This document shows positions 3,299-26,105 of a DNA stretch of 32,000 nucleotides, piece by piece. Below the pieces are notes generated by a model. It saw only the letters and a list, made by a program, of their open reading frames with translations. It was not told where the DNA came from and ran no database searches. Made by a program: the position numbers and the translations under genes. Numbering within the stretch: the stretch's first letter is position 1; every line of letters begins with the position of its first letter. The stretch comes from Promethearchaeota archaeon (GTDB lineage: Archaea > Asgardarchaeota > Lokiarchaeia > Sigyniarchaeales > SOKP01): assembly GCA_030606485.1 (NCBI GenBank), contig JAUWGH010000006.1:120001-152000 (forward strand), written 5' to 3'.

Positions 3299-5491
3299 TT
3301 AGATATGGAGTTTCATTTTCCAAAAAACCAATTTTTTTTGGATTTCATTTATTCCTGCTTCATCTAATACTCCTGGAACACTATTAAGATCAGATATACT
3401 TCGATTAATCGCATCTAAAACACCTGAAAATCCCTTTATCTTTAAAATAGTATCATGTAGCTTTCCTAACAATATGGAAATTTCAACCGCAGATTTTTTA
3501 TTAAGAGATTCTTTGATAAAGTTAAAATATTCGGATAGAACTTCAATAGTAGTTATTTCCATCTTTTCAAAATCCATTATTGAGACGGTTTTTTGTTCTT
3601 CAATAATCTTTTGTTTAGAAACTAAAGACTCTTCCGAAATTGGTGCAGGAGGCTCTATTTCTTCTTGAACTTTAATCTCCTCTTTACTAGGCTCAGGTGG
3701 AAATTCTTTTTTTATCTCTTTTTGAGGTATTTTTGGTTTTTCAAGTGATATTTGAAGTTTTACTGGCTTTTCAATTTCTGATTTAACCACACCTTTATGA
3801 GGACTGTAAAAAACATCTTTTTGAGCTCCGACCCAAGCATCCTCCAAAATTGGTACAAAGATTTTAATATGTTCTTCAATAATACTGCCAATTCCGGCGA
3901 TTTCAGTTTTCATTTCACCTCGAATTTCCGTTTTCGAGATAACACAAATAACCACCTCTTCATAATCTCTATTAATTGCCCATAGATTCTGTAATCTTCT
4001 ATGTCTATAAGAAACATTAGTCATTTGATCTAATTCTTGTAAGATTGCCATATGAGCTGAGGAAGATGGATTAATATTTGCAGCAATTCTAATATTTACA
4101 TGTGATCGTAGTGCTTTTAATGCATCAATATCTATATCCGTAATCTCAGGGGCTACAATTAATATTCTCATTTTAGCCTTTGAAATTTCTTCGTTGATAT
4201 GGGCTTTAGCACCTTCAATAGATCGTATAAACCAAATATCCCTCATAGAAAATAAGGTCACTCTTTTAGCCCTTTCCCAGAATTCAGCGGTAACCTTTTC
4301 ATTAATTTCCAACCTTCTGAGAATATCATCTAAAACATCATCTAAGGTTTTCATTACTTGGTTTGTAAATATATTTTTTAAACCAATAAGTGGTGCTGAA
4401 ATGTTGTCAGTAATTCCAGAGAGTTTCTCTTCCGCCATTACGATTGTTTTACTAAAGCTTTTACTCATATCGGCAAAAATTTCATTTATATTCTCTCCAG
4501 AACTTGCCGTTGTTTTAGTGATCTCATTAATATTGGTAATTAAATTACCCAATAAAGTATTTAATTTTAAACCAAATTTAGAGCTCATTTTTTCATTAAT
4601 TCGCTCTAATCCCACCGCAAAAACTTTTTCTATTACTTGATCTACGGTTTCTTGAATAACTCCAAGTCGTAACTTTTTTAGATTTTCTGAAATTGTACTT
4701 CGAATATCCTCAAAATTCTTACTTAAATCTCCAATTTCTGTTACCATAATTTTTTTTGATTCTTCCTCAATATCCTCAAGTACTTGGGTAACCGGTCTAA
4801 TTTTATCAATTTCAGATAATCTTTTTTCAAAAGCAACTTTTTGAGCATTCATCTTTGATAGCATGTCTTGTTTTAAAGTATTCATGAAATCACCGTAATC
4901 TCGTAATGTCTTAAGACCTTCAGTTTTTTCTTCAAATTGAGAAAATGATCCCTCTAACTGAGGTGAAATATTTTCTTTAATATTTCTTATATAAGAATTA
5001 AAATCTTGTAATTGACTAATTAATGCAGCATAAGGAGGTAATGCAGAATAGTGGGGAGTAGCTCCAATAATTTTTTTATATAATCCTTTTTGAACAAATT
5101 TTTCCGCAATAACTTCGCAATCTTCTTTTGGTTTGCCAATTAAGATTGACATTTCTCCAAGAGATACAGCATCTCTACCTGTTGTTAAAAAATATAATTC
5201 TATTTCATCATCAGATAATTCAATATCACTTAATACTTGTTTTGTTAGTTCCTGAGAATAGGATACATCCTTCTCTAAAATATCTTCGACTTTGAAATTT
5301 ACAATTTCCAAGTATTTATTTAAATACACTATTAATCTATGAGGAGGTGTTCCATGAACATCCACTTTTTTAATAGGAAATTTGGTTGTATTATTATATT
5401 CATCAGCTTTAATTTCAAACTTGATCTCTTCCAAACAAAGCTTACATGTGAAGGGAATTGAAACTTTATCTTTACCATTAAATAAATCCAT
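3299..5491 (-). CDS. Multidomain protein, copy 1: CxxC..H..H Zn-binding domain, TrmB-type wHTH, long helical/coiled-coil region, degenerate PLD-like domain, Pro/Lys/Glu linker, C-terminal helical domain
   Basis: FTCKLC...HGTPPH; TrmB-like LSDDEIELYF...SLGEMSILIG...KGLY...PHYSALPP; IWFIRSIEGAKAHINEEISKAKMRILIVAP matches the start of a TrmB/PLD-like C-domain. Clear paralogue of 12011-14218. Confidence 0.7.
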   Translation of the reverse strand: MDLFNGKDKVSIPFTCKLCLEEIKFEIKADEYNNTTKFPIKKVDVHGTPPHRLIVYLNKYLEIVNFKVEDILEKDVSYSQELTKQVLSDIELSDDEIELYFLTTGRDAVSLGEMSILIGKPKEDCEVIAEKFVQKGLYKKIIGATPHYSALPPYAALISQLQDFNSYIRNIKENISPQLEGSFSQFEEKTEGLKTLRDYGDFMNTLKQDMLSKMNAQKVAFEKRLSEIDKIRPVTQVLEDIEEESKKIMVTEIGDLSKNFEDIRSTISENLKKLRLGVIQETVDQVIEKVFAVGLERINEKMSSKFGLKLNTLLGNLITNINEITKTTASSGENINEIFADMSKSFSKTIVMAEEKLSGITDNISAPLIGLKNIFTNQVMKTLDDVLDDILRRLEINEKVTAEFWERAKRVTLFSMRDIWFIRSIEGAKAHINEEISKAKMRILIVAPEITDIDIDALKALRSHVNIRIAANINPSSSAHMAILQELDQMTNVSYRHRRLQNLWAINRDYEEVVICVISKTEIRGEMKTEIAGIGSIIEEHIKIFVPILEDAWVGAQKDVFYSPHKGVVKSEIEKPVKLQISLEKPKIPQKEIKKEFPPEPSKEEIKVQEEIEPPAPISEESLVSKQKIIEEQKTVSIMDFEKMEITTIEVLSEYFNFIKESLNKKSAVEISILLGKLHDTILKIKGFSGVLDAINRSISDLNSVPGVLDEAGINEIQKKLVFWKMKLHI

Positions 5492-5530
5492 CTTTTATCT
5501 TACACCTGTTTTTTCTTTCTAATTTTTTAA

Positions 5531-6784
5531 TCACCAATCAACCTTTTCAGGGTAAGTAACCTCTAATAATTCCAAGGCTTTTTTTGCAATTTCAATTGAT
5601 ATCTTTTGTTCTTTATCTTCAGATTTAAAAAATTCTCTAATTTTAGGTAATAAAAATTCGGGAAAAATAATAAGTGGCTTAATATCAGTAAGTAATATTA
5701 CCCAACCTTGATCTTCTTTATCTTTAAGTGTAGTAACTATTTTTAAATCTTCTAAAATGCTTAATATAACCTCAATGTCAAACCAATCCGAAAAAATTTT
5801 AGGGAGTTTGTCCAATGGATAATAAGAATTTCTCATTAATGCTAAAAAATCATAACTATCCGGATTTAGAAGTAATCCGGAAATTTTTTTCAACTCTTCA
5901 ACAGATTGTTTATTAACATCATAAGTTGAAAAATAATCTGCAACTTTATCTTTATATATATCATATAAATTTTTCTTATTTTCCCTTAAACGATTTAAAA
6001 TATTTTCATTGGGTAATCTTGCCAATAAAATATCCTTAGTTAAAAACAAATATTCTCCCTTATTTTTGACGATTCCAGTTTCTTTGTCCTTTTCTCCTTT
6101 TATCCAATCACGTCGAATTAAATTTAATTCTAAGAATGGGTCAAGCAATACATCTATATTTATATTCGGTTTCATTCTTTCTAAGATACCTTTTAATTCT
6201 TTTTTTGCGATTGGTCGTTCTCGTAATATCTCTAATATTTTTAATCTCTCATCACTGTGAAAAATTAAAGATGCTTTCTGTAATTTATCTAATTGAGATA
6301 ATCGATCAATTTGAAAAATAGTAAATTTTAATTCACTTTCTATTTTAGAGTGAATTTTCTCAAGCAGAGAAATTTGTTTTAAAGGATTAATATTTATTAA
6401 CTTCTTGAAAATTAAAAGTAATCTTTTTGCCATAGTATTAATTAGATCTTGGAATATTTCTACCTCATCATCCAGTTCAAAAAATGAAATAGTAATATAT
6501 TTTGAACTATCTGTTTCTTGCCTATAATATGATACTACTTGATAAGGTGTTTCCTTCAATCTTCCTGTATAAAAATTACTAAATGCGCCTTTATCTTTAA
6601 ATATCCCAGTTGTATGCTGATAAAATATACCAAAAATATCGTTTATAGAAATTAATTCCGTATAATTGGATTCATTGAACTTTTTGTTATGAAAAATTAA
6701 TTTTATTGGTCTAAATTCTGGCTCAATTTCGCCCGACTCTTCTTGATTTAGAATAAACTGAAAATTTAATATGCCTTGGATCAT
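5531..6784 (-). CDS. Longin-like N-terminal domain plus two winged-helix domains, copy 1
   Basis: Strand/helix pattern b-b-a-b-b-b-a-a from MIQGILNFQF; wHTH-like ERLKILEILRERPIAKKEL...LLDPFLELNLIRRDW and PDSYDFLALMR...LEDLKIV. Paralogue of 18171-19418; ends 39 bp before the 5491 start, so probably co-transcribed with it. Confidence 0.55.
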   Translation of the reverse strand: MIQGILNFQFILNQEESGEIEPEFRPIKLIFHNKKFNESNYTELISINDIFGIFYQHTTGIFKDKGAFSNFYTGRLKETPYQVVSYYRQETDSSKYITISFFELDDEVEIFQDLINTMAKRLLLIFKKLININPLKQISLLEKIHSKIESELKFTIFQIDRLSQLDKLQKASLIFHSDERLKILEILRERPIAKKELKGILERMKPNINIDVLLDPFLELNLIRRDWIKGEKDKETGIVKNKGEYLFLTKDILLARLPNENILNRLRENKKNLYDIYKDKVADYFSTYDVNKQSVEELKKISGLLLNPDSYDFLALMRNSYYPLDKLPKIFSDWFDIEVILSILEDLKIVTTLKDKEDQGWVILLTDIKPLIIFPEFLLPKIREFFKSEDKEQKISIEIAKKALELLEVTYPEKVDW

Positions 6785-7320
6785 TCAAAATCATTCCCGG
6801 AAAGATTATTTAATTTCAATTTTAGTATGCACATTAGATTTATTATAATCTTATACTATAATTATTATATTCAATCTTCATTAATATATTGTTACCTTAG
6901 AAATTCTGATTAAATTTAACAACAATAATTAATTTTATCGAAAACACTTAAATTGTTTTTTGTGCTGTATCTGAGAGAAAAAAAAAACCTATTAGCTAAA
7001 AATATTTTTCTTATAGAATTAACCAAGGAAATTTATCATGATTGCAAATTATTTTAAAGAATGCAATTTCTTTTGCCCTAAGATTTAAGAGATGAGTTAT
7101 TGATGGGATACTCGCTGATTTCAAATGCAAATAAAATGATATAGTAGAATGTTATTTTTAAAAAATTTCATTTATCAGCAAATTATGAGAAATGTAAATA
7201 TTCGTTCCAATTTTCTTTTTTTTATTTTAAATTTTAAAATGCAAAATTACACTGTTTTTAACTTGTTACTTAAATATTTGTGAATATATATTTAGATAGA
7301 ATAGATTAAAATTTCTTAAA

Positions 7321-7821
7321 ATGCCTATAAAGAAAATAGAAGAAATCCCGATAAAAGGGTTAAGTAAGGAATTACAATTAATTATCTTTTTTTACCAAGA
7401 ATATAAAAATAATAATAAAAAAATTGCAGCTGATCAAATTTTTAAAAGGTTTCCACCTCCGGGAAGTGTTTCTTATAACTTAGATAAATTAACAAAACTT
7501 GAATTTTTAAAAAAAGAAATTCTAAATGGCACTTCGCAAAAGTTGGGACAACCGAAGGTTATATACAGTATAAATCCAGACCGTCTTCCTGATGTTGAAC
7601 AATATTTAAAAGAAAATTTATCCCTACTTAAACCCTTATTTTCAATATTATTTGCCGACTCTTCTGCTTCAGAATTGAAAGATAAAAACATTCTTAGACT
7701 TTTTGAAGATTTGAAATTTGAATTAAAATCATATTTAGAAGATCTAAAAATCAAAAATACTCCTAAACAAGTTAAAAAATTGTATGAGAAGATATATCAC
7801 TTTTTTCTTGATAATTCTTGA
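7321..7821 (+). CDS. Winged-helix protein, putative transcription regulator
   Basis: IAADQIFKRF..PGSVSYNLDKLTKLEFLKK...GQPKVIYSIN fits a helix-turn-helix plus wing with a G-x-P-K-x-x-Y wing motif; the C-terminal half is helical. Confidence 0.65.
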   Translation: MPIKKIEEIPIKGLSKELQLIIFFYQEYKNNNKKIAADQIFKRFPPPGSVSYNLDKLTKLEFLKKEILNGTSQKLGQPKVIYSINPDRLPDVEQYLKENLSLLKPLFSILFADSSASELKDKNILRLFEDLKFELKSYLEDLKIKNTPKQVKKLYEKIYHFFLDNS

Positions 7822-8071
7822 GTCTAAAGAAATCTTCCTTCTATAGGCAATGTTTAATTTCATATATTTTTATTTTAAATTTTAAAATATAATCTTATTA
7901 AGTACCAAATACGACTCTAAAATTAAATTATTACTGTTTATTAAACCTATGAAGAGTCAAAAACTTTTTAATAAATTAACAAAAGAGTTTAAATATTAGA
8001 TTGATATTAATAAAATTAAATAAAAAGTTACTAAAAAGGGAGATATATTTTAAAAAAAAGGTGAATTTATT

Positions 8072-11000
8072 TTGAAAAAAATATTTAATCGAAATTATAA
8101 AAAAATCTTAATTCTTAGCAGTTTAATGATTATATTATATCTAAATTTTATTACATTTGGTAATATCATAAATGAGTATGTTTATTTTAATAACTATGAT
8201 GACGAAACAAATGAGTTTTTTCAAAATGATAGTATAAGGTCTCAAGATTATTTTGAGCAGCATTTTGATAATATAGAATGGCTTAAAAATAATACTTTTG
8301 ATCCCCCCGTAACTGAATGGTATAATACAACAGAAGGAGATATTACAGATGTAAATGCATCATTAAGTCCAGGTGTGGCAAATTTTGAGGTTCTAGGAGA
8401 TTCGGGAGAAATTAAAATCGATGATCCCTTTGATGACACCAATTGGACGCGTTTCAACAATCCAGAATTCCCAGTTTTACCTGATACTGCTTTAATTAAT
8501 TCAGCTGGCTGTTATATTGCCCATACATGGAATGAAAATGATAATCAAACTCGTAATACTCCTAGTGCCAATTGGAAAAGAAATATCGAAATGCCTGTTA
8601 ACATGTCAGATTATAAAATCACCTCCGCGTCACTTGAGGCAGTATTTAATGCATCTGTACAAGCAACACCTCTTATTGGAGGTATTGAGTGCCCCGGTGA
8701 TTATACTAATGGTCCAGGAAGTGATCCCCAATTTGCTACGGGTGATCAGGCAAAATTTTATGTCTTAATTTCAGATGTTGATCAAATCCAAGAATATAGA
8801 ATAGCATATAATCAAACCATTGATTTAGGACAAGATCTGGGTCCAATTGAAAGTTATGGTGAAACCCAAATGAATTATATTCCAGAGAACGTATTAATTG
8901 ATCTATTAACAGCGATTTTACAATACGATGATTATAACTTTACTATTACTGTAGGAATTGATTTATACTGTGAAGATAATGAATATGGTGCGGATATAGA
9001 CACATGGAACTATTTAATTATCAGATCTCTCAATTTAACTATTACTTACGAAAAATGGGTGAATCAATTTACATCAGTATCTTGGTGTCAAGATGGAGAT
9101 AAAATAAGCGGAACCAATGTCATTATTAAAAACGCCACACTTAACTTTAAATATAAAATTGATCAAAACTGGACTGACTCATCTCCAAATTCCGAAATTA
9201 GAATTTTAATTAATAATTTGTTGCATTCGGAAACCGTTAAATTAAGTACGGCTAATACCTCCTTTCAAGACGCAAAAATTGGTGGATTTGATGTCTCTTC
9301 TTTAATTCCAATAAATGAAAACATTAATACAACAATTCAAGTATATCTCGCAGATACATTTGCATTAGATCAGAAAATCAATATTTCAATTGATGATGTT
9401 TACCTTAAAATTTCTTATAAAATAATTACAATCGGAGAACAAACAGATTTTGTATTGTTTTTAAATGGAGAAAATAAAACTCTGGGAAAATTTCTTAAAG
9501 TTCCTTACGGGGATCCTATAAATATTACTATGAAATACATCAATTTATCGAGAGACTTTATACCGGGTGCAGATGTAACATTAACAGGGCTGGATGGTGT
9601 TAAAGATTTAGATGAAAATGGTCTACATGAACATTATAATATAACGCTCGATACAGGAACTTTTTCACTTGGAGAACATATTTTTACATTATATGCATAT
9701 AAGGAAGGTTATGATCCTCAAGAGATTTCACTTACTATAGAAATAATTGAAAGGACTACTTTTCTTGACGAAATTCACCTAAATCAGACAGAAACTAAAA
9801 TAATTGCATTTCCGTATGGGGAACCTTTGAATATCACAGTAGCATATAGAGATAATGCCACTAAAAATTTCATCGAAGGAGCTGAAGTAAAATTATTTGA
9901 TGGGGAGGATCTTAAAGGAACTTTCGATCAACAACTACCCTATGAACAATATAATCTTACGATAAATACTACTGATATTGGAATTGGATCGAGTCTTTTG
10001 ACAATTTATGCAAGTCAAGATAATTATTCAGCTTCTTTTGATACAATAATAACTGTTATAGAAATGAAAACGGAATTACATCTAGAAATAAATGGTAGTG
10101 AAATATTATATAATGAAGTTTACGAACTTCAAGTAAATGAGTCAATACTACTTACAGTTAACTATACAGACTATTATACTGGGGATCATATTGGGAGTGC
10201 AAATGTATCATTAACAGGGGCAGATATTTCGGAAAATTTAACAGAAAACATAGCATTAAAGCATTATAACATAACTTTGCACGCAGTAAATTTAACTAAA
10301 GGATTTAATTTTTTAACAATTATTGCCCAAAAAGAAGATATTATGCCTCAAGCCATTTCGTTTTCAATTAATATAATTGAGAGAAAAACGGTTCTAAACC
10401 TATTAATCAATGATACGGATATAACAACAACTAAAACTTATGTATTTCAAATAGGGGAAACTATAAACATTAAAGTGGATTATACAGACATTGAAACTGG
10501 ACAATTTATTGACGTTGCAACCATAGAAATAACGGGAGGAGGCATTTCAGCTACTTTAAATGAATATAGTAATTATTATTTGATCACCATAAGCGCAGAA
10601 GATTTAACTCAAGCAATCAACTTTATAAGAATTCTTGCCGAAAAGAAAAATTATCAACCTCAACCTATTGAGTTTAGAATTGATGTTATTGAAAGACAAA
10701 CATATGCAAGTTTCTTATTGAATCAGATAAATAAAACGCTTGATAAGACAATGGAACTTCCAATAGGTGATAATTTAAACATTACTTTTAAATATTTTGA
10801 CGCTAAGACGGGGGAGTATATCAATAATGCAACAGTGCAACTAATAGGAACGGATATTCCTTTGAATTTAACGGAATATTCTCAATTACAACATTATTCG
10901 CTAAATATAGATACAAGAAATTTGACTCGGGTTCAATTTTTAACTATTGTTGCTGAAAAGACGAATTATCAACCCTCATCAAACGTTCTGAAGATAACAG

Positions 11001-11752
11001 TTAGACAAATAAAAACAAATATTTCTGTGGTATCTGGAGAAGTTGTGAATATAGGAGTTGGTGGATCTCATCTTATCAATATTACTATATATGATATAGA
11101 CAATAATGTATCCTTAACCAATGTTACTGTCAGGTTCTCGGGTGATTTAGGCCAAGGAGTTCTTATTGAAGATCCAAATAATCCGGGTTCCTATCAAGCA
11201 TATTTTGAAAATGTAGGGCTTGGTACTTATAGAATTATTATAATTGTTACTGAAAGCAGCGGTGATTATTCATTTGAAGATAAAGAGGTTACATTGAGTG
11301 CAACTATATCTGAAGGAGAAGTCATGTTAATTTGGGGTAGTTTGATAGCATCTATCGTTGCTGCTATTACGATAGGGGGCTATTTCATTGCATATCAGAG
11401 ATACCTTAAATATCCAAAACCAGTTAGAAAGGTTCATAAATTCAAAAGGACTCTAAAGAGGAAATCAACCCCATCAGTAGATATTATTAGTCGTGATGAT
11501 TCATTCAAATCTCTACATAAAGAAGGATTGGGAAAAGTATCTAGATTAAAACCAGGTAAACTAGAAGAAGATAAACTTCCATCAGTCGATATAAAATCTG
11601 AAGCTAAATTTGCAGAAGAAACTCCGTCAACTAAAACGCAACCCGAAATTAAACCTCCTGAAAAAAGCCTGGTTTCTGATGAAAAGTTAAAAAAAAAATC
11701 TGACAAATCAAAAGATAAAACGTTAAACAAATCCAGTAAGACAGATAATTAA
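8072..11752 (+). CDS. Large single-pass cell-surface glycoprotein with about 6 Ig-like repeats, copy 1
   Basis: N-terminal basic-then-hydrophobic signal segment; roughly 105 aa repeats (T.L.L.N...NITV.Y.D...G..I..A.V.L.G...Y.ITI....L..G...LTI.A.K.NY); many NxS/T sequons; C-terminal TM near 11321-11392 and a charged cytoplasmic tail. Confidence 0.85.
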   Translation: MKKIFNRNYKKILILSSLMIILYLNFITFGNIINEYVYFNNYDDETNEFFQNDSIRSQDYFEQHFDNIEWLKNNTFDPPVTEWYNTTEGDITDVNASLSPGVANFEVLGDSGEIKIDDPFDDTNWTRFNNPEFPVLPDTALINSAGCYIAHTWNENDNQTRNTPSANWKRNIEMPVNMSDYKITSASLEAVFNASVQATPLIGGIECPGDYTNGPGSDPQFATGDQAKFYVLISDVDQIQEYRIAYNQTIDLGQDLGPIESYGETQMNYIPENVLIDLLTAILQYDDYNFTITVGIDLYCEDNEYGADIDTWNYLIIRSLNLTITYEKWVNQFTSVSWCQDGDKISGTNVIIKNATLNFKYKIDQNWTDSSPNSEIRILINNLLHSETVKLSTANTSFQDAKIGGFDVSSLIPINENINTTIQVYLADTFALDQKINISIDDVYLKISYKIITIGEQTDFVLFLNGENKTLGKFLKVPYGDPINITMKYINLSRDFIPGADVTLTGLDGVKDLDENGLHEHYNITLDTGTFSLGEHIFTLYAYKEGYDPQEISLTIEIIERTTFLDEIHLNQTETKIIAFPYGEPLNITVAYRDNATKNFIEGAEVKLFDGEDLKGTFDQQLPYEQYNLTINTTDIGIGSSLLTIYASQDNYSASFDTIITVIEMKTELHLEINGSEILYNEVYELQVNESILLTVNYTDYYTGDHIGSANVSLTGADISENLTENIALKHYNITLHAVNLTKGFNFLTIIAQKEDIMPQAISFSINIIERKTVLNLLINDTDITTTKTYVFQIGETINIKVDYTDIETGQFIDVATIEITGGGISATLNEYSNYYLITISAEDLTQAINFIRILAEKKNYQPQPIEFRIDVIERQTYASFLLNQINKTLDKTMELPIGDNLNITFKYFDAKTGEYINNATVQLIGTDIPLNLTEYSQLQHYSLNIDTRNLTRVQFLTIVAEKTNYQPSSNVLKITVRQIKTNISVVSGEVVNIGVGGSHLINITIYDIDNNVSLTNVTVRFSGDLGQGVLIEDPNNPGSYQAYFENVGLGTYRIIIIVTESSGDYSFEDKEVTLSATISEGEVMLIWGSLIASIVAAITIGGYFIAYQRYLKYPKPVRKVHKFKRTLKRKSTPSVDIISRDDSFKSLHKEGLGKVSRLKPGKLEEDKLPSVDIKSEAKFAEETPSTKTQPEIKPPEKSLVSDEKLKKKSDKSKDKTLNKSSKTDN
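9437..11305 (+). repeat. About six tandem Ig-like domain repeats (approximately 105 aa each)
   Basis: Repeat junctions IEIIE-RTT, ITVIE-MKT, INIIE-RKT, IDVIE-RQT and ITVRQ-IKT are visible in the translation; boundaries are approximate. Confidence 0.75.
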
Positions 11753-11977
11753 TATTAATCTTATTTAATTTTACTCTCTTTTTTTGATTTTATATTATTT
11801 TTTCTTAATATTGTTTAAGTTTACAAATTTTAATTTTTTCTATGATTAGATATGCTTCAACATAATATTTAGTGGTTATTGATGAAGTTAAATGCATATT
11901 ATTTGAAAAAACCTATTGAGGTTGCTAAATAGGAAGCATACTTTAAAAATTTAGAAGATAAAATATTAAGAAGATTG

Positions 11978-11995
11978 AAAAAAAGAGAAAAGAAA
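11978..11995 (-). terminator. Possible oligo-T terminator for the 12011-14218 gene
   Basis: On the minus strand, TTTCTTTTCTCTTTTTTT follows about 15 nt after the stop codon. Archaeal terminators are T-tracts, but T-tracts are common in this AT-rich DNA. Confidence 0.3.
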
Positions 11996-12010
11996 CAATC
12001 CTTTTTTTCT

Positions 12011-14218: not shown

Positions 14219-14412
14219 TTTTTATAATCCACATTTTTGTATTTTATTTTATCAAAATTTAAATTTCTCTAAATAAGCAAGATCTAATAAGTTAAAAGAA
14301 TTCTTAACTTTTTCTTGTGCTATTTTTAATTATATTATATATAAATTTTATCTAATATCACTAAAATTAAATATCCCAAAATATTTGAAATAAAAAAATA
14401 TTTTAAATATTA

Positions 14413-14452
14413 ACTCTATTAGCATCAAAATTATATTTATGGAATATAATAG
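14413..14452 (+). promoter_or_regulatory. Conserved upstream element (probable BRE/TATA promoter) of GTPase gene 1
   Basis: 34/40 nt identical to 16269-16308 and at nearly the same distance (88 vs 90 nt) from the inferred TTG start; contains an A-run followed by TTTAT. Confidence 0.5.
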
Positions 14453-14539
14453 AAATATTTAGAAATATTAATATAATCATTAAATCCAAATTTAATTTTT
14501 GTTAATTTTAAATAATTTGAATTATTGAGGAAAAGGTCT

Positions 14540-16168: not shown

Positions 16169-16268
16169 TAAAGAAAACATTACAAACAAAAATTATCTTT
16201 TATTAGAAATTTTTAATTTAAAAAAATTTTATTTTAAAAATTTGACTTAAAAAATAATCTAAAAATTT

Positions 16269-16308
16269 ACTCTGTTAACATCAAAATTAAATTTATAAAA
16301 TATTATAG
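16269..16308 (+). promoter_or_regulatory. Conserved upstream element (probable BRE/TATA promoter) of GTPase gene 2
   Basis: Duplicate of 14413-14452; contains CAAAATTAAATTTATAAAA. Confidence 0.5.
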
Positions 16309-16397
16309 TAATAGTTAGAAATTTAATTTTTTTAATTATAATAATCTAAATTTAATTTTTATCAATACTAATTAATTTAAATTTTAGAGGAAATATT

Positions 16398-18035: not shown

Positions 18036-18170
18036 TCACAAATATCTCTGTTATTAAAAAGTAAAATTACAAAACCAATAGCAGTAATTCAAAAATCTTT
18101 TGATAAATTAACTCAAAAAATGTCTAAAAAATCACCAGACAAAATAAAAAATTGGAAATAAATAAAATTT

Positions 18171-19418
18171 TTAGAATTCAACTTTCTCTGGATAAGCAAC
18201 TTCTAATAATTCGAGGGCTTTCTTAGCAATTTCATGTGTTATTCTTTCATCTTTATTTTTAAAAGCTTCTCTGATTTTAGGAAGTAAGTATTCAGGAAAA
18301 AATATTAGAGGTTTAATATCAGTTAATAAAAATATCCAATTCCTTTCATCTTTATCTTTTATCTCAATTATCACATTAGACTCTTTTAAATCATTTAATA
18401 TCATTTCAGTATCGGCGAATTCTGAAAAAATCTTTGGCATTTTATCTAAGGGATAATATTTACTTCTCATTAAAACGAAAAAATCATATACATCTGGATT
18501 CAAAAGAATAGAAGCTAAATATTTCGTTTCTTCAATGGACTGTGTATTAGGATCGTACTTAGAAAAGAAATCAACTACTTTTTGTTCATATTTAGGATAT
18601 AACACATGATTGATTTCTTTTAAATGGTTTAATAATTTTATGTCTGGAACTCGGACTAAAAATATATCTTTTGTTAAAAATAAAAATTCACCCTGACGAC
18701 CAATTAAACCCGTTCTTTTATCCCTTTTTCCTTTAATCCAATCACGTTTTATTAAGTTTAATTCTAAAAAAGGGTCAAGTAGCACATCCACATTAGGATT
18801 CTCTTTTATTTTTTCTAATGCATTTCTCAATTCATTTTTTGAAATAGGTTTTTCTCGTAAAAGTTCTAATATTTTTAGTCTCTCTTCACTTTGAAAAATC
18901 AAAGCTGCTTTCTGTATTTTATCTAATTGAGATAAACGATCAATTTCAAAGATGGCAAATTTTAATTCACTCTCAATTTTAGAAATCATTTTATCAAGCA
19001 GAGAAATTTGCTTTAATTCACTTATTTTTACTAATGCTTCGAAATTACTATTTAATTTTTCTGCCATATTTTTAATTATATCCCAAAATATTTCGACCTC
19101 ATCCTCCAATTCAAAAATTGATATCGTTAAATATTGAAAACCATCAGATTCTTGTCTAAAATATGAAACAATTTGATATGGTGTTTCTTTTAATCTTCCT
19201 GAGTAAAAATTACTAAAAACACCTTTATCTGCAACTATTCCAGTTGTATGTTGATAAAATATTCCAAAAATATCATTTTGAACAATTAATTCCGAATAAT
19301 TAGCTTCAGTGAATTTTTGATTATTAAAAACTAGTTTTATCGGTCTGAATTCCGGTACAAATTCGCCCGTTTCTGTTTGATTTAAAACAAATTTAAAAAT
19401 TAAAATACCTTGAATCAT
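18171..19418 (-). CDS. Longin-like N-terminal domain plus two winged-helix domains, copy 2
   Basis: 45/60 identical to 5531-6784 over the first 60 residues (hand count), with similarity along the whole length to the C-terminal YPEKV(DW/EF). Confidence 0.55.
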   Translation of the reverse strand: MIQGILIFKFVLNQTETGEFVPEFRPIKLVFNNQKFTEANYSELIVQNDIFGIFYQHTTGIVADKGVFSNFYSGRLKETPYQIVSYFRQESDGFQYLTISIFELEDEVEIFWDIIKNMAEKLNSNFEALVKISELKQISLLDKMISKIESELKFAIFEIDRLSQLDKIQKAALIFQSEERLKILELLREKPISKNELRNALEKIKENPNVDVLLDPFLELNLIKRDWIKGKRDKRTGLIGRQGEFLFLTKDIFLVRVPDIKLLNHLKEINHVLYPKYEQKVVDFFSKYDPNTQSIEETKYLASILLNPDVYDFFVLMRSKYYPLDKMPKIFSEFADTEMILNDLKESNVIIEIKDKDERNWIFLLTDIKPLIFFPEYLLPKIREAFKNKDERITHEIAKKALELLEVAYPEKVEF

Positions 19419-19512
19419 TTAATATCAACCCCTAACATACTAGTTAAAATTTTTTCATTTATTCATTAAATTTTATAATGGCAATTAATGCTAATAATTA
19501 TATAGTTTTATT

Positions 19513-19544
19513 ATTAGTATTGTACTAATTACTATTCAATAGTA
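19513..19544. promoter_or_regulatory. Two abutting palindromes (putative operator) in the divergent intergenic region
   Basis: ATTAGTA-ttg-TACTAAT (19513-19529) is immediately followed by TACTATT-c-AATAGTA (19530-19544), about 11 nt upstream of TTTATA (19556-19561). Confidence 0.5.
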
Positions 19545-19589
19545 CTCCCAAATATTTATAATAAGTGGTAAAAATTAGGGTTGGTTATT

Positions 19590-22500
19590 TTGAAAAAAAA
19601 AAATAGCATAAGTTATAAAAAAATTTTAATTCTATTCAGTTTAATACTTATATTCTCTTTAATTTTCATTACGCCTGGTATTTACACAAATAAAAATGGA
19701 TATTTTAATAATCCTACTGATGAAACTAATACTGATGAAATCAATACTGATCTTCAGAATAAAGATTTTAGGTCTCAAGGTATAACCTCCGATAATATTT
19801 ATTCAGGAATTGGGGCTCCTTGGAATCTAACTCATTGGGCTAATCGAACGGATTATGATATCCCAGTAGATTTTACTAGTCCACTTATACCTAATGATGA
19901 TGGTAAATGGGGTAGAATGTGTCCGCTTGTAATACAATCTAGTAAGGTTAATAGCGACTTATCGAATTTCACTATCCTTTTAACAAATGATACACTTCCA
20001 TCTGAAATGTTTAATGCAGATGGTCTTTACCCTGCATTAGATGGTGGAGGGGATATTCGTTTTTCGACCGATCTAAACGGTGACAACCTTCTTCCCTGTG
20101 AAATAGTCACATTTACAACTGATAACAACCCTGCTAACGGTAAAGCTGAGATTTGGGTTAAAGTTCCTTCTATTAGTTCCTCTACCGATACCACCATCTA
20201 TGTCTGGTATAACAAACTTGGATACAACGAAGCTGCAATGAACCAACCTGCTGCGGATGATATTCTTGGTTCGGAAGCTGTGTGGTCAAATAACTTTGAG
20301 GGCGTTTGGCATTTGAATGAAAGTTCTGGGAGCGCAAAAGACAGTACATCTAATGGATATGATGGCTCTTTTCAAGGAGATTTACCAGACGCTCAAATTG
20401 GACAAATTGGGGAGGGACAAGATCTTGATGGAACCGGCGATTATGTAGATATAGGCGATGCAGGAACTGGGATACAGACTATTGAGTTTTGGATGGAATC
20501 AGATGATCTTACTGATAGTTTGGATACTGATACTGGTTGGAATATTCCAAGTAATTATGATGATGATTATTGGGATTGGGATTATCCAGGTAATGTCTCC
20601 ACAAATAATAATCAATACGCATCAGAGCCCGATGCTAGTGGTTCACAAGATTGGTATGACTTTAATTTTGGTATACCCGGCGGTTCTTCGATCAATGGTA
20701 TTTGGGTACATATTGAAGCAAATGAAATGGGTGTGGGTACTGCTGGTGCAGACATTGAACTTTCTTGGAATGGAGGTAATTCTTATACCAGCACAGGTTA
20801 TGGAGATGACTACTCTGGTTCTGATGTTAATTATTATTATGGTAGTTCATCAGATCTTTGGGGCAGAGTATCATGGGCTGATACTGAATTAAGCAACGCT
20901 AATTTTAGGGTTAGATTAACGAAAAATGGTGTAACAACTCCTAGAGTTGACCTTCTAAGGGTAAGGGTTTATTATACCATAACCAACGTTAACAGGAAAA
21001 TAATTGATATAGATGGTACCGACCAGATAGAAATCGACGGAAGTACTGCTGATATACTTGCCACTAGTTTTCCAGGTACTACAACAATTTATGTAGACGG
21101 AGCAGTTGCATCTGGTGTAACAACAAACTGGCATCATGTTGTAATTACTGATACGACCGGAGTCAATCCTTCTGATATGGATATTGGTCGAGTTTCATCA
21201 AGGTACTTTGACGGTATCATCGATGAGGTCCGGATCTCAGATACTGTAAGAAGTGCCGACTGGATTAATTCACTATACAACAATCAAGATGATCCGAGCA
21301 CCTTTGTTATTAACGGAACTCCAATAGAGGGCGGCATCATCTCAATCTATATTATCGAACAAATATCTAATATTGTAGATATGCCTTTAGATCTTGGGTG
21401 GCAAGGTAAAAAATTAAACGCTACCATAAAGGACTTGTATGATAAAAGAAATTGGATCAATGGAACTTTCCACGCTGGACCTGATGATAATGACCCTTCC
21501 TGTCCTGAAAATGATAGTATTTATCTTCAAAATTGGACTTATGGTGAATATGATGTTGTGGGTGATTATAGTAATGATATGTCTGGAAATTATTTTGATA
21601 GCACAAACGATCCTTCTAACAATGGCAGTGATTGCTTGGAATTAAGAATGGATGGAGATGGTTTTGGATATGATAAATATGATAGATGTTGGTGGGAGTC
21701 GAATTTCACTTTGCCAAGGGGAAAGGTGATTGAGGGTGAAATAAATCTTGTGATATGTCCTTATACGCAATATTACGAAACCCGTGAGTTTGGAACGCAT
21801 TGGAGTGTTCAAGTTATCTTAAATGGTATAGTAATTGATGACAAGAATCTTATATGGTTAGAATATAGTGGGGGTGGTGATTGGTATCCCTTGAAATTAC
21901 AGTTAACGAATTGGTTAGACGATCCAATAGTATTTCCGGATAATGAGAAAAATATGAGCCTTAGGATACAATTAATAAGAAATGGACCAACACTTAGTCA
22001 CGGCCCGTATGGTTCATATCAACAAGTACTTTTTGATGACGTATCATTAATCGTAAAAACAGAGGTTAAACCTACTCAAATCGGCTTAAAAATGAACCAA
22101 ACTGCTGTTATAGATACTTCAAATTGGGGTGAAGGCACTGTAGAAATAGATGGTGATTGGAATGGCACCCAGTTTCCTTTAGTGCACGCTAATTTTAGCA
22201 ATGATGAGGTCTGGGCATTAGGTGATTATGATATCGATTTTAAAACGAATGTAAATCTTTTTGCGACAAAACATACTCCAGAAACTAATTATGAGACAAA
22301 TGCAGCTTCGTTAGGCACCGGGTTTTCTGTAAGTAATGATAGTTTAGTAAATTGGGAATGTTATGGGTATACTTCGGTCCCAACGGGATATGCCGAAACA
22401 GAAATGAGACTTGAATTTCCAACTGATGTTTATATCACTTGGGTTTCCTATCCTTCAGACCCGCTTATTAATAAATTAGATTTATGTGATAATTCAACTG

Positions 22501-25500
22501 CTGGACTTTTAATTGTTAACGTGTCCAAAATATCAGCTACACCAGATGGTTTTTGGAAGTTTGAAGCAATATCCCCAAATTATTTTGAGCAATTAAATAT
22601 ATATAACAATGCTACAGGTAGTTGGATCGAAGATAACGAATTTTTAAGTGGAGAATATATAAATATTACTGCGAAAATAACGAATAGTCCATTGATATCT
22701 GCTTATATTTTGGATACTAAAGCAATTCTCCATGTAAGATTCCCAAATGGCACTATATGGACAGAAAAAACACAAGAAAAAAACCTTATTTCAAACGGTT
22801 TTGTTTATTTTGATTCTTTTCAAATACCTTCCAACATTCCTAATTATAAAGTAGGAGAATATGATGCAATAATTTCGTGGAATAATTCTCATTCTATTTA
22901 TGGGTTAAATGAAACTGGCATAATCTACAAAAAATTTACCGTAATTCACAATTCTACATTAATACCTGACCAAAGCTATTACGCAGATATATTTGAAGGC
23001 ACTTCAATAAATTTAAAAGTTTCATTTAATGATCTTAAAGATGGCAAGGCTATAGAGGGTGCTGTTGTATATACATATAATTTTACTCATCCTACTATAA
23101 TACAGAATTTCAGTGAAATTAGTCCAGGTTATTATGTTTTTTTAGATTTTAATGTTAGTGGTGCTCCACAAGCTGGTGATAATATTATAACAATTTATGC
23201 AAATTCTTCTTTATATACGAATAATGAAGTTGATGTAACTATTGAAGTAATAAAAGCAACGACTCTTACTGTAGATAAGTCAATTTTATCTGTCCAGTGG
23301 AATGATAATTTTACAATCCAATTAAACTATACTGAGGAAGTTAGTGGGACAGGTATTGATACTACACCAATAAATAATTGGGTAGGAGAAACCCATACTG
23401 TTAGAATCTCTCAAGGAGTATATAACATAACTTGTAATAGTTCCGCATATGAAGTAAATAAACGTTATAATTTATATGTTGATTTTAATGAAACTGGTTA
23501 TGAAACACAATCAATAACAACTATAATTGAAATTGTTGAAAGAGAAACATATATCGACGATATTTTCATAAATGGTAGTGATTGCACGACTAATAAATCT
23601 TATAATGTTAAAGCAGGAGAACTTTTGAATCTTACCGTAAAATATAGGGATATTGAAACAGGTGGGACTTTTATTAATAATGCTCTAGTAAAATTAATAG
23701 GAACGGGAATAGAAAAGACTTTTAACGAAAGGATATCATTCCAATACTATAACTTAACTTTAAATTCAACAGAATTAGGTGTTGGCGTAAAGTTTTTAAC
23801 TATTACTGCTCAAAAAGATAATTATACATCTGCTTCAGAATTGTTAACCATAACTGTTTTTGAAAGAGGAACTAATTATATTTTATATTTGAATGAAACT
23901 GATTCTACAAGCGATCCATCTTACCAACTAACTGATAACCAGCTCTTGAATATCACTGTCTCCTATATAGATACAATATTGACGGAACATATTAGTGGTG
24001 CTACAGTGGATATAAACGGATCAGGAATCTCTAAACAATTTGTTGAGGCTTTCAATAATTATTCTGTAGAAATAAATTCGACAGATTTAAATCTAGGTGT
24101 AAATTTTTTAACTATCTATGCTCAAAAAGAAACTTATGAACCCCAATCAATACTGATTACAATAGAAGTAATACAAATAGAAACAGAATTAAATCTATAT
24201 TTAGATGGAGAGGATAAAACAAGTGAACCATCAATTACAAAATATACAAATCAGAGCTTAAATATTACAATATCGTATAGAGAGTTCGAAATACCCAATA
24301 AACATGTTAGCGGAGCTATAGTGGACATAAATGGATCAGGAATATCTGAGCCTTTATATGAGGCATTCAATAATTATTCTGTGCTTATAAATACGACTAA
24401 ATTAAATCTAGGAGCAAATTTTTTAACAATTTATGCTCGTAAAGATAAGTATGAACCACAAACGATTTTACTTTCGATAGAGATAATACAAATAGAAACA
24501 AATTTAACATTATATAAAAATGGGATAGATATAACAGCTATACCATCAATTAAACAATACACAAATCAAATTCTAAATATTACAGTATCATATAAAGAGG
24601 CTACAGGTCCCTACAAACATGTGAGCGGCGCTATAGTTGATATAAATGGATCGGGAATTTCAAAGGTTTTTAATGAATTAGGAACCAATTATTCAGTTCT
24701 TATTGATACTACAAATCTTAATCAAGGAGCAAATTTTCTGACAATTTATGCTCGTAAAGAAAACTTTGAGCCTCAAACGATTTTACTTACAATAGAGATA
24801 ATACAAATAGAAACAGACTTAAAGTTATTTTTAAATGGAGTGGATAAAACAAATGAACCTTCTATTGACGTAATTACACTTGAAACTTTAAATATCACTA
24901 TAAAATATACCACTTATGGAACTGGAGTCCATATTAGTAATGCAACAATTGAATTATCTGGAAGTGGACTTTCGATAAATATAAGTGAAAATCTTGGTTT
25001 AAAGCAATATTCATTTATTATTAATACAATAGATTTAAACGTAGGATTTAATTTCTTAACAGTTTATGCTCAGAAAAGCAATTATGAAGCTCAAACGATT
25101 TTAATCACAATACAGCTAATTGAAAGAAAAGCATATGATGAGATATATTTAGACAATGAAGATAAAACACTTGAAAAATCAATCGAAACTCCAATAGGTA
25201 AGGAGTTAAATATCACTTTTAAATATTTTGACGATATAACAGGAAATCACATTCCTCAAGCACTAGTACAACTTATAGGAGCAGGACATACTTGGAATTT
25301 TACGGAAAATAATTCATTAAAGCAATATTCGCTAATTATAGATACTACAGAATTAGATATTGGACTTAAATTTCTAACCATATATGCTCAAAGGACATAT
25401 TATCAATCTTCTTCAGAGCTTTTAGAGATAACTGTTAGACAAATAAAAACAAATATTACAACAGAATCTGGAGAAGATGTAATAAATATACAAGCTGGTG

Positions 25501-26105
25501 AATCTTATACTCTAAGAATAACTTTACATGATTTAGATTTTGGAAGTATAATAAAGAATGCAACTGTTAGATATACATGGGAATTAGGACAAGGTTACCT
25601 TACAGATGATGATAATAATGGCATTTTTGAGGTCACATTAGAAAATATACCTGAAGGCACTTTTACTATTACTTTCACTATTTTGAATGTAAGTGATGAT
25701 TATTTATTTGAGCGAAAAACAATAACTCTAAATGTGGTTAGTCCTCCAGAAGAAACTCTAATATTTCTGATATTAACTATAGTCGCCATTGCTGCCTTTA
25801 TTAGTGTCACCAGTTATTTCATAGCATATCAAAGAGTATTAAAGTATCCAAAACCTGTTAGAAAAATTCATAAATTCAAGAAGACTTTAAAGAAGAAAAA
25901 ATCTCCTGATGTTGAAATTCTCTCGAGTAAAGTTCTATTAAAAGCCCTCTACAATGAAGAATTAGATCCTGTTGCTAAACTTTTTAAAGGGAAGATGAAA
26001 TATGAACAACCAGAAAAACAACTAGAACTAAAACCATCAAAAGATGAATTAATTGATACTTTATCCGAAATATCACCTGAAGAATCCGAAAAAAATGAGA
26101 AATAA
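19590..26105 (+). CDS. Giant single-pass cell-surface glycoprotein: DUF2341 + LamG/ConA-like domain, further beta-rich domains and about 9 Ig-like repeats, copy 2
   Basis: DUF2341-like GGDIRFS...CEIV...AEIWVKVP...IYVWY; LamG-like GVWHLNE...DGTGDYV...WHHV...FDGIIDEVRIS; Ig repeats; TM and tail as in 8072-11752. TTG 19590 is preferred over 19581 because it aligns MKK.....YKKILIL with copy 1. Confidence 0.85.
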   Translation: MKKKNSISYKKILILFSLILIFSLIFITPGIYTNKNGYFNNPTDETNTDEINTDLQNKDFRSQGITSDNIYSGIGAPWNLTHWANRTDYDIPVDFTSPLIPNDDGKWGRMCPLVIQSSKVNSDLSNFTILLTNDTLPSEMFNADGLYPALDGGGDIRFSTDLNGDNLLPCEIVTFTTDNNPANGKAEIWVKVPSISSSTDTTIYVWYNKLGYNEAAMNQPAADDILGSEAVWSNNFEGVWHLNESSGSAKDSTSNGYDGSFQGDLPDAQIGQIGEGQDLDGTGDYVDIGDAGTGIQTIEFWMESDDLTDSLDTDTGWNIPSNYDDDYWDWDYPGNVSTNNNQYASEPDASGSQDWYDFNFGIPGGSSINGIWVHIEANEMGVGTAGADIELSWNGGNSYTSTGYGDDYSGSDVNYYYGSSSDLWGRVSWADTELSNANFRVRLTKNGVTTPRVDLLRVRVYYTITNVNRKIIDIDGTDQIEIDGSTADILATSFPGTTTIYVDGAVASGVTTNWHHVVITDTTGVNPSDMDIGRVSSRYFDGIIDEVRISDTVRSADWINSLYNNQDDPSTFVINGTPIEGGIISIYIIEQISNIVDMPLDLGWQGKKLNATIKDLYDKRNWINGTFHAGPDDNDPSCPENDSIYLQNWTYGEYDVVGDYSNDMSGNYFDSTNDPSNNGSDCLELRMDGDGFGYDKYDRCWWESNFTLPRGKVIEGEINLVICPYTQYYETREFGTHWSVQVILNGIVIDDKNLIWLEYSGGGDWYPLKLQLTNWLDDPIVFPDNEKNMSLRIQLIRNGPTLSHGPYGSYQQVLFDDVSLIVKTEVKPTQIGLKMNQTAVIDTSNWGEGTVEIDGDWNGTQFPLVHANFSNDEVWALGDYDIDFKTNVNLFATKHTPETNYETNAASLGTGFSVSNDSLVNWECYGYTSVPTGYAETEMRLEFPTDVYITWVSYPSDPLINKLDLCDNSTAGLLIVNVSKISATPDGFWKFEAISPNYFEQLNIYNNATGSWIEDNEFLSGEYINITAKITNSPLISAYILDTKAILHVRFPNGTIWTEKTQEKNLISNGFVYFDSFQIPSNIPNYKVGEYDAIISWNNSHSIYGLNETGIIYKKFTVIHNSTLIPDQSYYADIFEGTSINLKVSFNDLKDGKAIEGAVVYTYNFTHPTIIQNFSEISPGYYVFLDFNVSGAPQAGDNIITIYANSSLYTNNEVDVTIEVIKATTLTVDKSILSVQWNDNFTIQLNYTEEVSGTGIDTTPINNWVGETHTVRISQGVYNITCNSSAYEVNKRYNLYVDFNETGYETQSITTIIEIVERETYIDDIFINGSDCTTNKSYNVKAGELLNLTVKYRDIETGGTFINNALVKLIGTGIEKTFNERISFQYYNLTLNSTELGVGVKFLTITAQKDNYTSASELLTITVFERGTNYILYLNETDSTSDPSYQLTDNQLLNITVSYIDTILTEHISGATVDINGSGISKQFVEAFNNYSVEINSTDLNLGVNFLTIYAQKETYEPQSILITIEVIQIETELNLYLDGEDKTSEPSITKYTNQSLNITISYREFEIPNKHVSGAIVDINGSGISEPLYEAFNNYSVLINTTKLNLGANFLTIYARKDKYEPQTILLSIEIIQIETNLTLYKNGIDITAIPSIKQYTNQILNITVSYKEATGPYKHVSGAIVDINGSGISKVFNELGTNYSVLIDTTNLNQGANFLTIYARKENFEPQTILLTIEIIQIETDLKLFLNGVDKTNEPSIDVITLETLNITIKYTTYGTGVHISNATIELSGSGLSINISENLGLKQYSFIINTIDLNVGFNFLTVYAQKSNYEAQTILITIQLIERKAYDEIYLDNEDKTLEKSIETPIGKELNITFKYFDDITGNHIPQALVQLIGAGHTWNFTENNSLKQYSLIIDTTELDIGLKFLTIYAQRTYYQSSSELLEITVRQIKTNITTESGEDVINIQAGESYTLRITLHDLDFGSIIKNATVRYTWELGQGYLTDDDNNGIFEVTLENIPEGTFTITFTILNVSDDYLFERKTITLNVVSPPEETLIFLILTIVAIAAFISVTSYFIAYQRVLKYPKPVRKIHKFKKTLKKKKSPDVEILSSKVLLKALYNEELDPVAKLFKGKMKYEQPEKQLELKPSKDELIDTLSEISPEESEKNEK
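23860..25115 (+). repeat. Tandem 315-bp (105 aa) Ig-like repeats
   Basis: The identical junction ATACAAATAGAAACA occurs at 24171, 24486 and 24801 (exact 315-bp spacing); VDINGSGIS and NFLTIYA recur; outer boundaries are approximate. Confidence 0.85.

Follow-up and report, generated by a model that had tools for sequence, protein, structure and literature searches.

Asgard archaea encode dozens of Ras-superfamily GTPases along with longin and Roadblock proteins, and their partners and roles are obscure. What such a switch might be connected to is the question raised by a 32,000-nt stretch of a Promethearchaeota archaeon (contig JAUWGH010000006.1, positions 120,001 to 152,000; hereafter the window), in which a gene cassette occurs twice in tandem. 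Each unit encodes a protein with a winged helix-turn-helix (wHTH) and a phospholipase D (PLD)-like domain, a longin protein and a surface protein, which we call A, B and S, and unit 2 also holds two GTPase genes, G1 and G2 (Table 1). The original prediction for this locus, made from the sequence alone, was a single pathway of surface sensor, longin regulator, GTPase pair and coiled-coil effector. Our analysis indicates that the two units are probably tandem copies of a module tying surface proteins to a cytoplasmic adaptor, B, and, through this adaptor, to small GTPases. S and B are linked by gene order, by gene fusion and by an interface model that is clearly separated from its controls, and it is S-B-A that makes up the conserved core of the module, without the GTPase.

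In all 20 orthologous loci, which come from genera g2, g4, g6, g8 and g9, B and A are neighbours on one strand; wherever the contig is long enough, they are accompanied by one to four S-type genes. B is present in all 54 sampled genomes of the window's family. In a deeper paralogous lineage, which the B tree sets apart as a deep clade of its own, the genes run co-linearly from S to B to A and overlap or nearly abut (L021, L022, L024 and L034-36), and pairs of B and S are also found in families f4 and f14. The complete layout of unit 2, A(-)G(+)B(-)S(+), recurs in genera g1, g4 (six genomes) and g7, and involves one sub-branch of the G family. The expected co-location of the four families in other genomes was thereby borne out, the unit-2 layout in three genera and S-B-A throughout the order. 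Because G lies between A and B only in that one sub-branch and most G genes are elsewhere, we regard S-B-A as the retained part and the GTPase as a recurrent addition. Owing to a polytomy in the B tree, neither B1 nor B2 could be assigned to the g4 clades with or without the GTPase.

Every complete S-type gene adjoining B encodes an N-terminal hydrophobic segment, one transmembrane (TM) helix and a tail motif, while the ectodomains vary freely between about 480 and 2174 aa. The ectodomains of S1 and S2 carry 3-4 N-x-S/T sequons per 100 aa, compared with 0-0.8 elsewhere, and to judge from these features S is a type-I, glycosylated, single-pass surface protein. S1 consists of the hydrophobic segment, a conserved N-terminal module (about 69-450), five tandem repeats of about 110 aa (452-982), the TM helix and the tail; S2 has a DUF2341 region near its N terminus, at least seven repeats of about 110 aa at 1143-1957, the TM helix and the tail. 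The repeats (105-112 aa) were found with a single repeat unit as query, self-BLAST of S1 and S2 having given the diagonal only. Of the Ig-repeat surface protein first proposed, the tandem repeats are thus confirmed, and their Ig identity is weakly suggested by sub-threshold Pfam matches. An atlas feature search with the S1 N-terminal module returned only leads below 0.85, and Pfam returned nothing in five short S paralogues. The GC content rises to 0.386 at 20001-22000, within the DUF2341-bearing N-terminal part of S2, compared with about 0.29 elsewhere.

What all S proteins have in common is a juxtamembrane motif, KYPxPVRKVRK, of which the main type reads YQxxLKYPxPVRKVRKYRKTL; the co-linear type has YQTHFKYPPMVRKIRKLKKK and family f4 has YYFKYPKIIRKIRG. 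In an alignment of 35-38 tails, P11 and R15 are invariant (35-tail set) and Y4, K16 and R18 are conserved in at least 90%, so that the conserved basic cytoplasmic tail noticed at the outset is a real motif across all the S paralogues.

In other Asgard lineages the two proteins are found as one. A search with the B profile for longer proteins recovered 17 S-B fusions of 943-2202 aa, in which an ectodomain (LamG, DUF2341, CarboxypepD_reg) is followed by a TM helix, a motif KIPxFVKKVR, about 70 aa and the B module, the latter being complete in 16 of the 17. DUF2341 is thus shared by these fused receptors and S2, and the fused receptors also carry LamG. A second group of over-long B-like proteins (514-692 aa), considered as further receptor fusions, was rejected, as these have C-terminal extensions and no TM helix.

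The coupling was then modelled as a complex of B1 with the first 70 residues of the S1 tail, both entered as alignments. The score was 0.86, the best of three controls reaching 0.01; this mark was attained by 58 of the 80 solved complexes and two of the 110 mismatched pairs, counts that are approximate here because our own alignments were used. At least 72% of contacts are common to the runs, and the partner has a pLDDT (predicted local distance difference test) of at least 67. No comparable solved complex is known to us, so that the model is unlikely to have reproduced a known structure. The predicted interface joins tail residues 11-56 to B at positions 188, 251-291 and 371-411, in the winged-helix half and the last helix, and names no residue of the longin domain. 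The conservation of these B positions is 0.60 against 0.46 for the rest of B 166-417, a value reached by 44 of 20000 random subsets, and the interface residues D251, R256, P258, Y277, F285, Y288, D367, P375, L404, L407 and Y411 are kept in the 16 complete fusions. The controlled model thus predicts that the S tail docks on the winged-helix half of B and leaves the longin domain free; the tail had been foreseen as part of the pathway, and its contact is predicted here away from the longin domain.

In the predicted structure of B1 (pLDDT 86.7), the longin domain (1-165) is followed by long helices and by two winged-helix-like units (about 167-257 and 295-373), which are predicted from the topology of the model alone; a C-terminal helix (397-410) comes last. 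The first 165 residues fold in the model as E2-14, E20-31, H47-58, E68-75, E81-89, E95-103 and H108-135, the beta-beta-alpha-beta-beta-beta-alpha sandwich of the longin superfamily, and superpose in VIA-align on solved longins: Lst4 (Z 12.8, root-mean-square deviation 2.7 A, 131 residues aligned), the Lokiarchaeal Roadblock-Longin protein 8yqg (Z 12.5, 3.3 A, 139 residues), C9orf72-SMCR8 (Z 12.0), GATOR1 chains (11.6-11.3), FNIP2 (11.5), and TRAPP and AP sigma subunits at about 10. Alignments to the NPRL2, FNIP2 and SMCR8 chains span B 1-165 only, or scattered residues up to 309. The longin-wHTH gene of the original prediction therefore stands, the longin part by structural superposition and the winged helices by model topology.

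The evidence for a tie between B and GTPases comes from other loci as well as from unit 2. B-like genes of about 360 aa abut genes for GTPases of 280-305 aa in families f9 (2/2 loci), f13 (4/5), f20 (4/4), f8 (5/29) and f14 (2/4); the gaps in these five families are often 4-40 bp, and in f14 the pairs are divergent with S on the other side. The GTPases beside these distant B-like genes are Arf-like, and their N-terminal extension matches sigma-adaptin-type longin models in four of 14 cases. On three contigs the fused S-B genes are flanked by genes for GTPases of 308-327 aa that match both the Roadblock and the Rab-like part of the G-family profile (E 1e-56 to 1e-66). Taken together, the unit-2 loci and the fused-receptor loci link S and B to a Roadblock-Rab-like GTPase in two lineages with different gene structures. 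The GTPase pair thus keeps its place in the proposed pathway by repeated adjacency to B, and loses it as a member of the conserved core.

On the same three contigs a conserved 286-aa protein without a Pfam match is encoded between the fused S-B gene and the Roadblock-Rab-like gene; neither this gene nor an approximately 366-aa gene near the fused receptors matches the A or B profile. Divergent to a fused S-B gene lies the gene for a 658-aa protein with two tandem small-GTPase domains (L111:5565-7541, minus strand).

G1 is made up of a Roadblock-like domain (about 1-165), a Rab-like G domain (170-354) and a C-terminal domain of about 190 aa without fold assignment; alignment with G2 places its likely start at 14540. 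The G domain matches Pfam Ras at E 2.8e-41, and the family profile is closest to Rab proteins among PDB chains (Rab1 about 1e-42, Rab14 5.5e-42, Rab11, a Thorarchaeota Rab 1.9e-39). The G1-G5 motifs are present: GxxxxGKT, T199, NKxD and SA are invariant in the family, and switch II reads D-x-G-A-Q instead of DxxGQ. The prenylation cysteines of Rab proteins are absent from G1 and G2, whose C-termini (...LLFVY and ...LLFNY) close the extra domain. For the N-terminal domain, Robl_LC7 (PF03259) matches eight of 16 members with a best E of 2.5e-4, below the curated cut-off, one member matches MAPKK1_Int, and G1 alone gives E 0.15 against Robl_LC7. Of the description as two Roadblock-Rab-like GTPases, then, the Rab-like half is firmly upheld and the Roadblock half less so. 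An identity as Rag GTPases was rejected, the Roadblock-like region being N-terminal and not C-terminal and the Gtr1_RagA match (1.2e-5) being weak against that of Ras. hhalign gave no support, without excluding them, for the C-terminal domain as a degenerate G domain (probability 4%), for a relation between the N-terminal domain of G and that of the Arf-like proteins, or for kinship of either N-terminal domain with the longin of B.

The G family occurs in 51 of 51 genomes of the window's family, mostly as tandem pairs, and most copies have thiamine genes and a small RING-TPR gene as neighbours. The latter gene, for a 194-aa RING-finger and TPR protein (zf-RING_2 E 1.8e-7), always precedes the stand-alone G pairs in divergent orientation, next to the thiamine biosynthesis genes. 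A Ser/Asp/Leu-rich insert (SDLSYLSDFSDLSELSEFSDLS...) is found between helix 4 and the G5 strand of G1 (15440-15511) and G2 (17298-17378); most G members of 521-528 aa have, by the family consensus, a much shorter stretch at this position. At one locus (L047, G207:C3:248900-268899), two extended G genes (822 and 896 aa) alternate with genes for DUF2341-type surface proteins, one of which has a TM helix and a 20-residue tail from which the motif is absent.

A was originally described as an effector with zinc, wHTH, coiled-coil and PLD-like domains. These domains are borne out, and the protein is of TrmB/TrmBL2 type, so that it may be a DNA-binding output and not a generic coiled-coil effector. 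It is restricted to one order (53 of 54 genomes of family f1 and four of five of f2). A1 comprises a C2H2-type beta domain (1-70), a wHTH (79-150), a helical insert of about 260 aa (153-411), a PLD-like domain (425-555), a disordered linker (562-639) and a four-helix bundle (649-727). The zinc-type ligands C16, C19, H46 and H51 are invariant in the 12 members that have the first domain. In a Foldseek search the best match was TrmBL2 (5bqt, E 3.8e-7), across both the wHTH and the PLD-like domain, followed by TrmB (3qph, 1.1e-4), Nuc (1byr, 1.2e-4) and the TrmB sugar-binding domain (2f5t, 1e-3); the family profile matches TrmB in the PDB (3qph, E 3.2e-4, query 84-212 on chain 7-129), and Pfam TrmB (PF01978) matches 12 of 21 members (best E 3e-8). 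As in TrmB and TrmBL2 (3qph, 2f5t, 5bqt), an N-terminal TrmB-type wHTH, a following (dimerisation) helix and a PLD-like domain stand in the same order. Unlike them, A has the C2H2 domain at its N terminus, about 260 residues of long helices in place of a short coiled-coil linker, and the disordered stretch and four-helix bundle where TrmB proper has its C-terminal sugar-binding subdomain, and it shares a conserved operon with a longin adaptor and surface proteins. The insert gives apolipoprotein-like matches in 13 of 21 members.

The phospholipase D signature H-x-K-x4-D is replaced in A by N502-x-W504-x4-D509 (N in 19, W in 21 and D in 21 of 21 members), the equivalence being drawn from motif spacing on the strand and not from superposition. 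An invariant H-x-K (H541 and K543, 21/21) lies off the canonical position, at the start of the helix that follows the last PLD-like strand. Weaker A-like genes in families f3, f4 and f22 are not adjacent to B-like genes where the two can be compared (about 50 kb apart in G001 and G013).

Within the window, the ORF list places the two units, with identical gene order and orientation, at 3299-11752 and 12011-26105, exactly as first reported, with ordinary metabolic genes on both sides; the GC content of the window is about 0.29. B1 precedes A1 on the same strand, at a distance of 39 nt. Pairwise BLASTP gave identities of 57% over the full length for A1/A2, 65% for B1/B2, 79% for G1/G2 and 39% over the C-terminal 730 aa or so for S1/S2, and none of these pairs has an internal stop; the paralogues are thus intact as claimed, their divergence not being heavy by the family's own standards. 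The 166-aa ORF W, which had been counted as a wHTH gene of unit 1, has no Pfam match, is present in three of three congeners, cut to 37 aa in one of them (G040), and was not found in any of 27 genomes representing 12 other genera of the window's family. It is a genus-specific ORF and no conserved component of the module. In a congener (L054, G129:C212) the two units are arranged differently, and pieces of the HAD and alpha/beta-hydrolase genes from the right flank of the window lie between two B-S pairs, which points to a recent rearrangement around the duplication. The atlas protein clusters for A and B belong to Promethearchaeota, the DNA of the window is also present in cold-seep and marine-sediment metagenomes from several studies, and no RNA run is listed for the locus among public sequencing runs.

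Table 1. Genes and protein features of the two units, and related genes at other loci (positions in the window unless a locus is named).
Feature	Position	Strand	Description
A1	3299-5491	-	730 aa, TrmB/TrmBL2-like; predicted structure, Foldseek, family profile, Pfam, motif columns
B1	5531-6784	-	417-aa putative adaptor; predicted structure, VIA-align, complex model
W	7321-7821	+	166-aa ORF between B1 and S1
S1	8072-11752	+	1226-aa predicted single-pass surface protein
S1 TM helix	11321-11377	+	residues 1084-1102; hydropathy scan
S1 juxtamembrane motif (predicted docking)	11384-11551	+	FIAYQRYLKYPKPVRKVHKFKRTLKRK..., tail residues 1-56 of the modelled segment
A2	12011-14218	-	735-aa paralogue of A1
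G1	14525-16168	+	Roadblock-like N domain, Rab-like G domain, C-terminal domain
G2	16398-18035	+	545-aa tandem paralogue of G1
B2	18171-19418	-	415-aa paralogue of B1; convergent with G2
S2	19581-26105	+	2174-aa predicted surface protein
S2 TM helix	25755-25811	+	residues 2059-2077
S2 tail motif	25818-25985	+	
RING-TPR gene	L042:7125-7709	-	counterparts in L041, L043-L046, L056, L057
286-aa gene	L109:13994-14854		
286-aa gene	L111:14384-15244		
286-aa gene	L112:14733-15593		

In the mechanism that we propose, the S proteins would combine variable ectodomains with one common juxtamembrane motif, approximately Y-Q-x-x-L-K-Y-P-x-P-V-R-K-V-R-K, which the tandem winged-helix half of B would clamp, while the N-terminal longin domain would stay free as a platform for a small GTPase. 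In unit 2 this GTPase would be the Roadblock-Rab-like pair G1/G2, and in other Asgard families a longin-fused Arf-like GTPase. A, putatively co-transcribed with B, would likely be the downstream partner, as a DNA-binding output or as a sub-membrane scaffold, its TrmB ancestry suggesting the former and its long rod the latter. By inference, B would contact the GTPase and might act as a GTPase-activating protein (GAP) or guanine nucleotide exchange factor (GEF), and the flow could run outside-in, as signalling, or inside-out, as GTPase-controlled placing or clustering of surface proteins. The pathway originally imagined is thus kept in its S-B link, the predicted tail docking and the B-GTPase adjacency, and given up where it made the GTPase part of the core and A a generic effector.

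Several observations weigh against this adaptor mechanism. The genomes of one family are kin, so that the locus counts overstate their independence, and the three fused-receptor contigs are mutually syntenic and count as one lineage. The GTPase is absent from unit 1 and from most S-B-A loci, and may be optional or supplied in trans; most G members, moreover, lie in unrelated housekeeping synteny. The complex score is the model's own confidence and no measurement, and the predicted structure of A is of middling quality (pLDDT 68). The GAP-type longins FLCN, SMCR8, C9orf72 and NPRL2 are marked by a contiguous Gly-Pro motif where the beta1-beta2 loop ends or beta2 begins (PMC12290439), and the family alignment of B lacks it: G18 is invariant in the beta1-beta2 loop, the next residue is variable, and a near-invariant P26 follows eight residues on. 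R or K occupies position 75 in 27 of 30 B members and is at most a candidate for the catalytic arginine finger represented by NPRL2 R78, FLCN R164 and SMCR8 R147.

Much of the same evidence could be read with A at the centre. A would be a transcription factor held with B on the S tails and freed to DNA upon engagement of the ectodomain, the GTPases being incidental or modulatory; the logic of sequestered regulators is known from Mlc, held by PtsG, and from membrane-tethered anti-sigma systems. The TrmB-type wHTH of A, with TrmBL2 and TrmB as its best structural matches over the wHTH and PLD-like domains, the putative co-transcription and near-constant adjacency of A and B, a core module without GTPase and the two winged-helix units of B all speak for such a regulator. 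However, A is confined to one order, whereas S+B and B+GTPase pairs are found phylum-wide, so that A seems to have been added later; the helical insert of 260 residues, with its apolipoprotein-like matches, and the C-terminal bundle are unlike known TrmB regulators, the winged helices of B are predicted to bind a peptide and not DNA, and no operator or target was identified. We consider this explanation unlikely, if deserving of serious attention.

The absence of the GTPase from unit 1 and most loci would also suit a passive envelope scaffold, in which B and A form a sub-membrane lattice that anchors or spaces the S tails, A being a long rod whose PLD-like and helical domains dimerise, with no nucleotide switch and with GTPase adjacency as mere co-regulation. 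That A is mostly a long helical rod, and that at a given locus up to four S paralogues, all with the same tail, share one B/A pair, agrees with a lattice. Against it, the fact that B-like genes abut GTPase genes in five further families, often with 4-40 bp between them, and the Roadblock-Rab-like genes flanking the fused receptors are hard to explain without a functional tie, and the longin of B is of a class that regulates GTPases in eukaryotes; we therefore hold a purely passive scaffold to be distinctly improbable. One could go further and deny any direct coupling, the genes being merely co-located and co-duplicated and the tail motif being a stop-transfer or membrane-interaction signal, given that it is basic and juxtamembrane like positive-inside signals. 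Yet its invariant Pro and Arg and its order-specific residues extend well beyond a charge cluster, S-B fusions exist, the complex model on a conserved surface of B is strong and separated from its controls, and the adjacency is conserved across families, which leaves this view with very little credibility.

If the adaptor mechanism holds, an adaptor family is tied to surface proteins and, by repeated adjacency, to two kinds of small GTPase, and some orphan Asgard GTPases gain testable partners, for which the tail peptide, B, G1/G2 and A make a cloneable set. The module bears on whether the closest archaeal relatives of eukaryotes already coupled membrane proteins to small-GTPase switches, and so on the origin of the eukaryotic trafficking and nutrient-signalling machinery. 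That it is a prokaryotic forerunner of the eukaryotic logic of tail motif, adaptor and small GTPase, with surface proteins under Rab-like or Arf-like switches, is a tentative extension and on balance rather doubtful; were it true, an Asgard cell could sort, cluster or signal from defined surface patches, such as protrusions.

No paper was found that describes the B family, the S tail motif, the S-B fusion or the S-B-A module, in keeping with the initial impression that the combination is not a described system. Described from Asgard genomes are longin- and Roadblock-fused GTPases, NPRL2-like longins and an operon with LAMTOR1-like, Rab-like and DENN genes (PMC10933270; 10.1101/2020.10.19.343400; PMC12290439).

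Among eukaryotic systems, the longin GAP complexes with their GTPases (GATOR1 NPRL2-NPRL3 with RagA/B, FLCN-FNIP with RagC/D and C9orf72-SMCR8 with Arf) share with B the longin fold (Z 11-12.8), and B genes repeatedly lie beside GTPase genes. The longin domain alone aligns, however; B has no contiguous GP motif, and its C-terminal half appears to consist of two winged helices, the putative tail holder, rather than of a DENN/NPRL C-terminal domain. The GTPases beside B, Rab- or Arf-like and with a Roadblock or longin domain at the N terminus, are not of the Rag type with a C-terminal roadblock, and any GAP activity of B would be putative. The sigma and mu subunits of AP-1/AP-2, with Arf1, offer a parallel in that one short motif on many membrane proteins is read by a longin-containing adaptor, Arf- and Rab-like GTPases keep genomic company with B, and sigma-adaptins are among the matches of B (Z 9-10). 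The analogy is one of logic only: the S tail is predicted to sit on the winged-helix half, and no coat, vesicle or heterotetramer is evident.

Similar in architecture are the fused GTPases of Asgard archaea, which are known from MK-D1 and further Asgard genomes in a Roadblock-GTPase and a longin-GTPase form (Tran et al. 2024, PMC10933270; Liu et al. preprint 10.1101/2020.10.19.343400), to which G1/G2 and the Arf-like neighbours of B, respectively, correspond. In MK-D1 the GTPase genes are generally outside operons with Roadblock or longin genes, which makes their partners hard to predict (PMC10933270). Unlike those described so far, the GTPases reported here are linked to defined adaptor and receptor families, and G1 and G2 carry in addition their C-terminal domain of about 190 aa.

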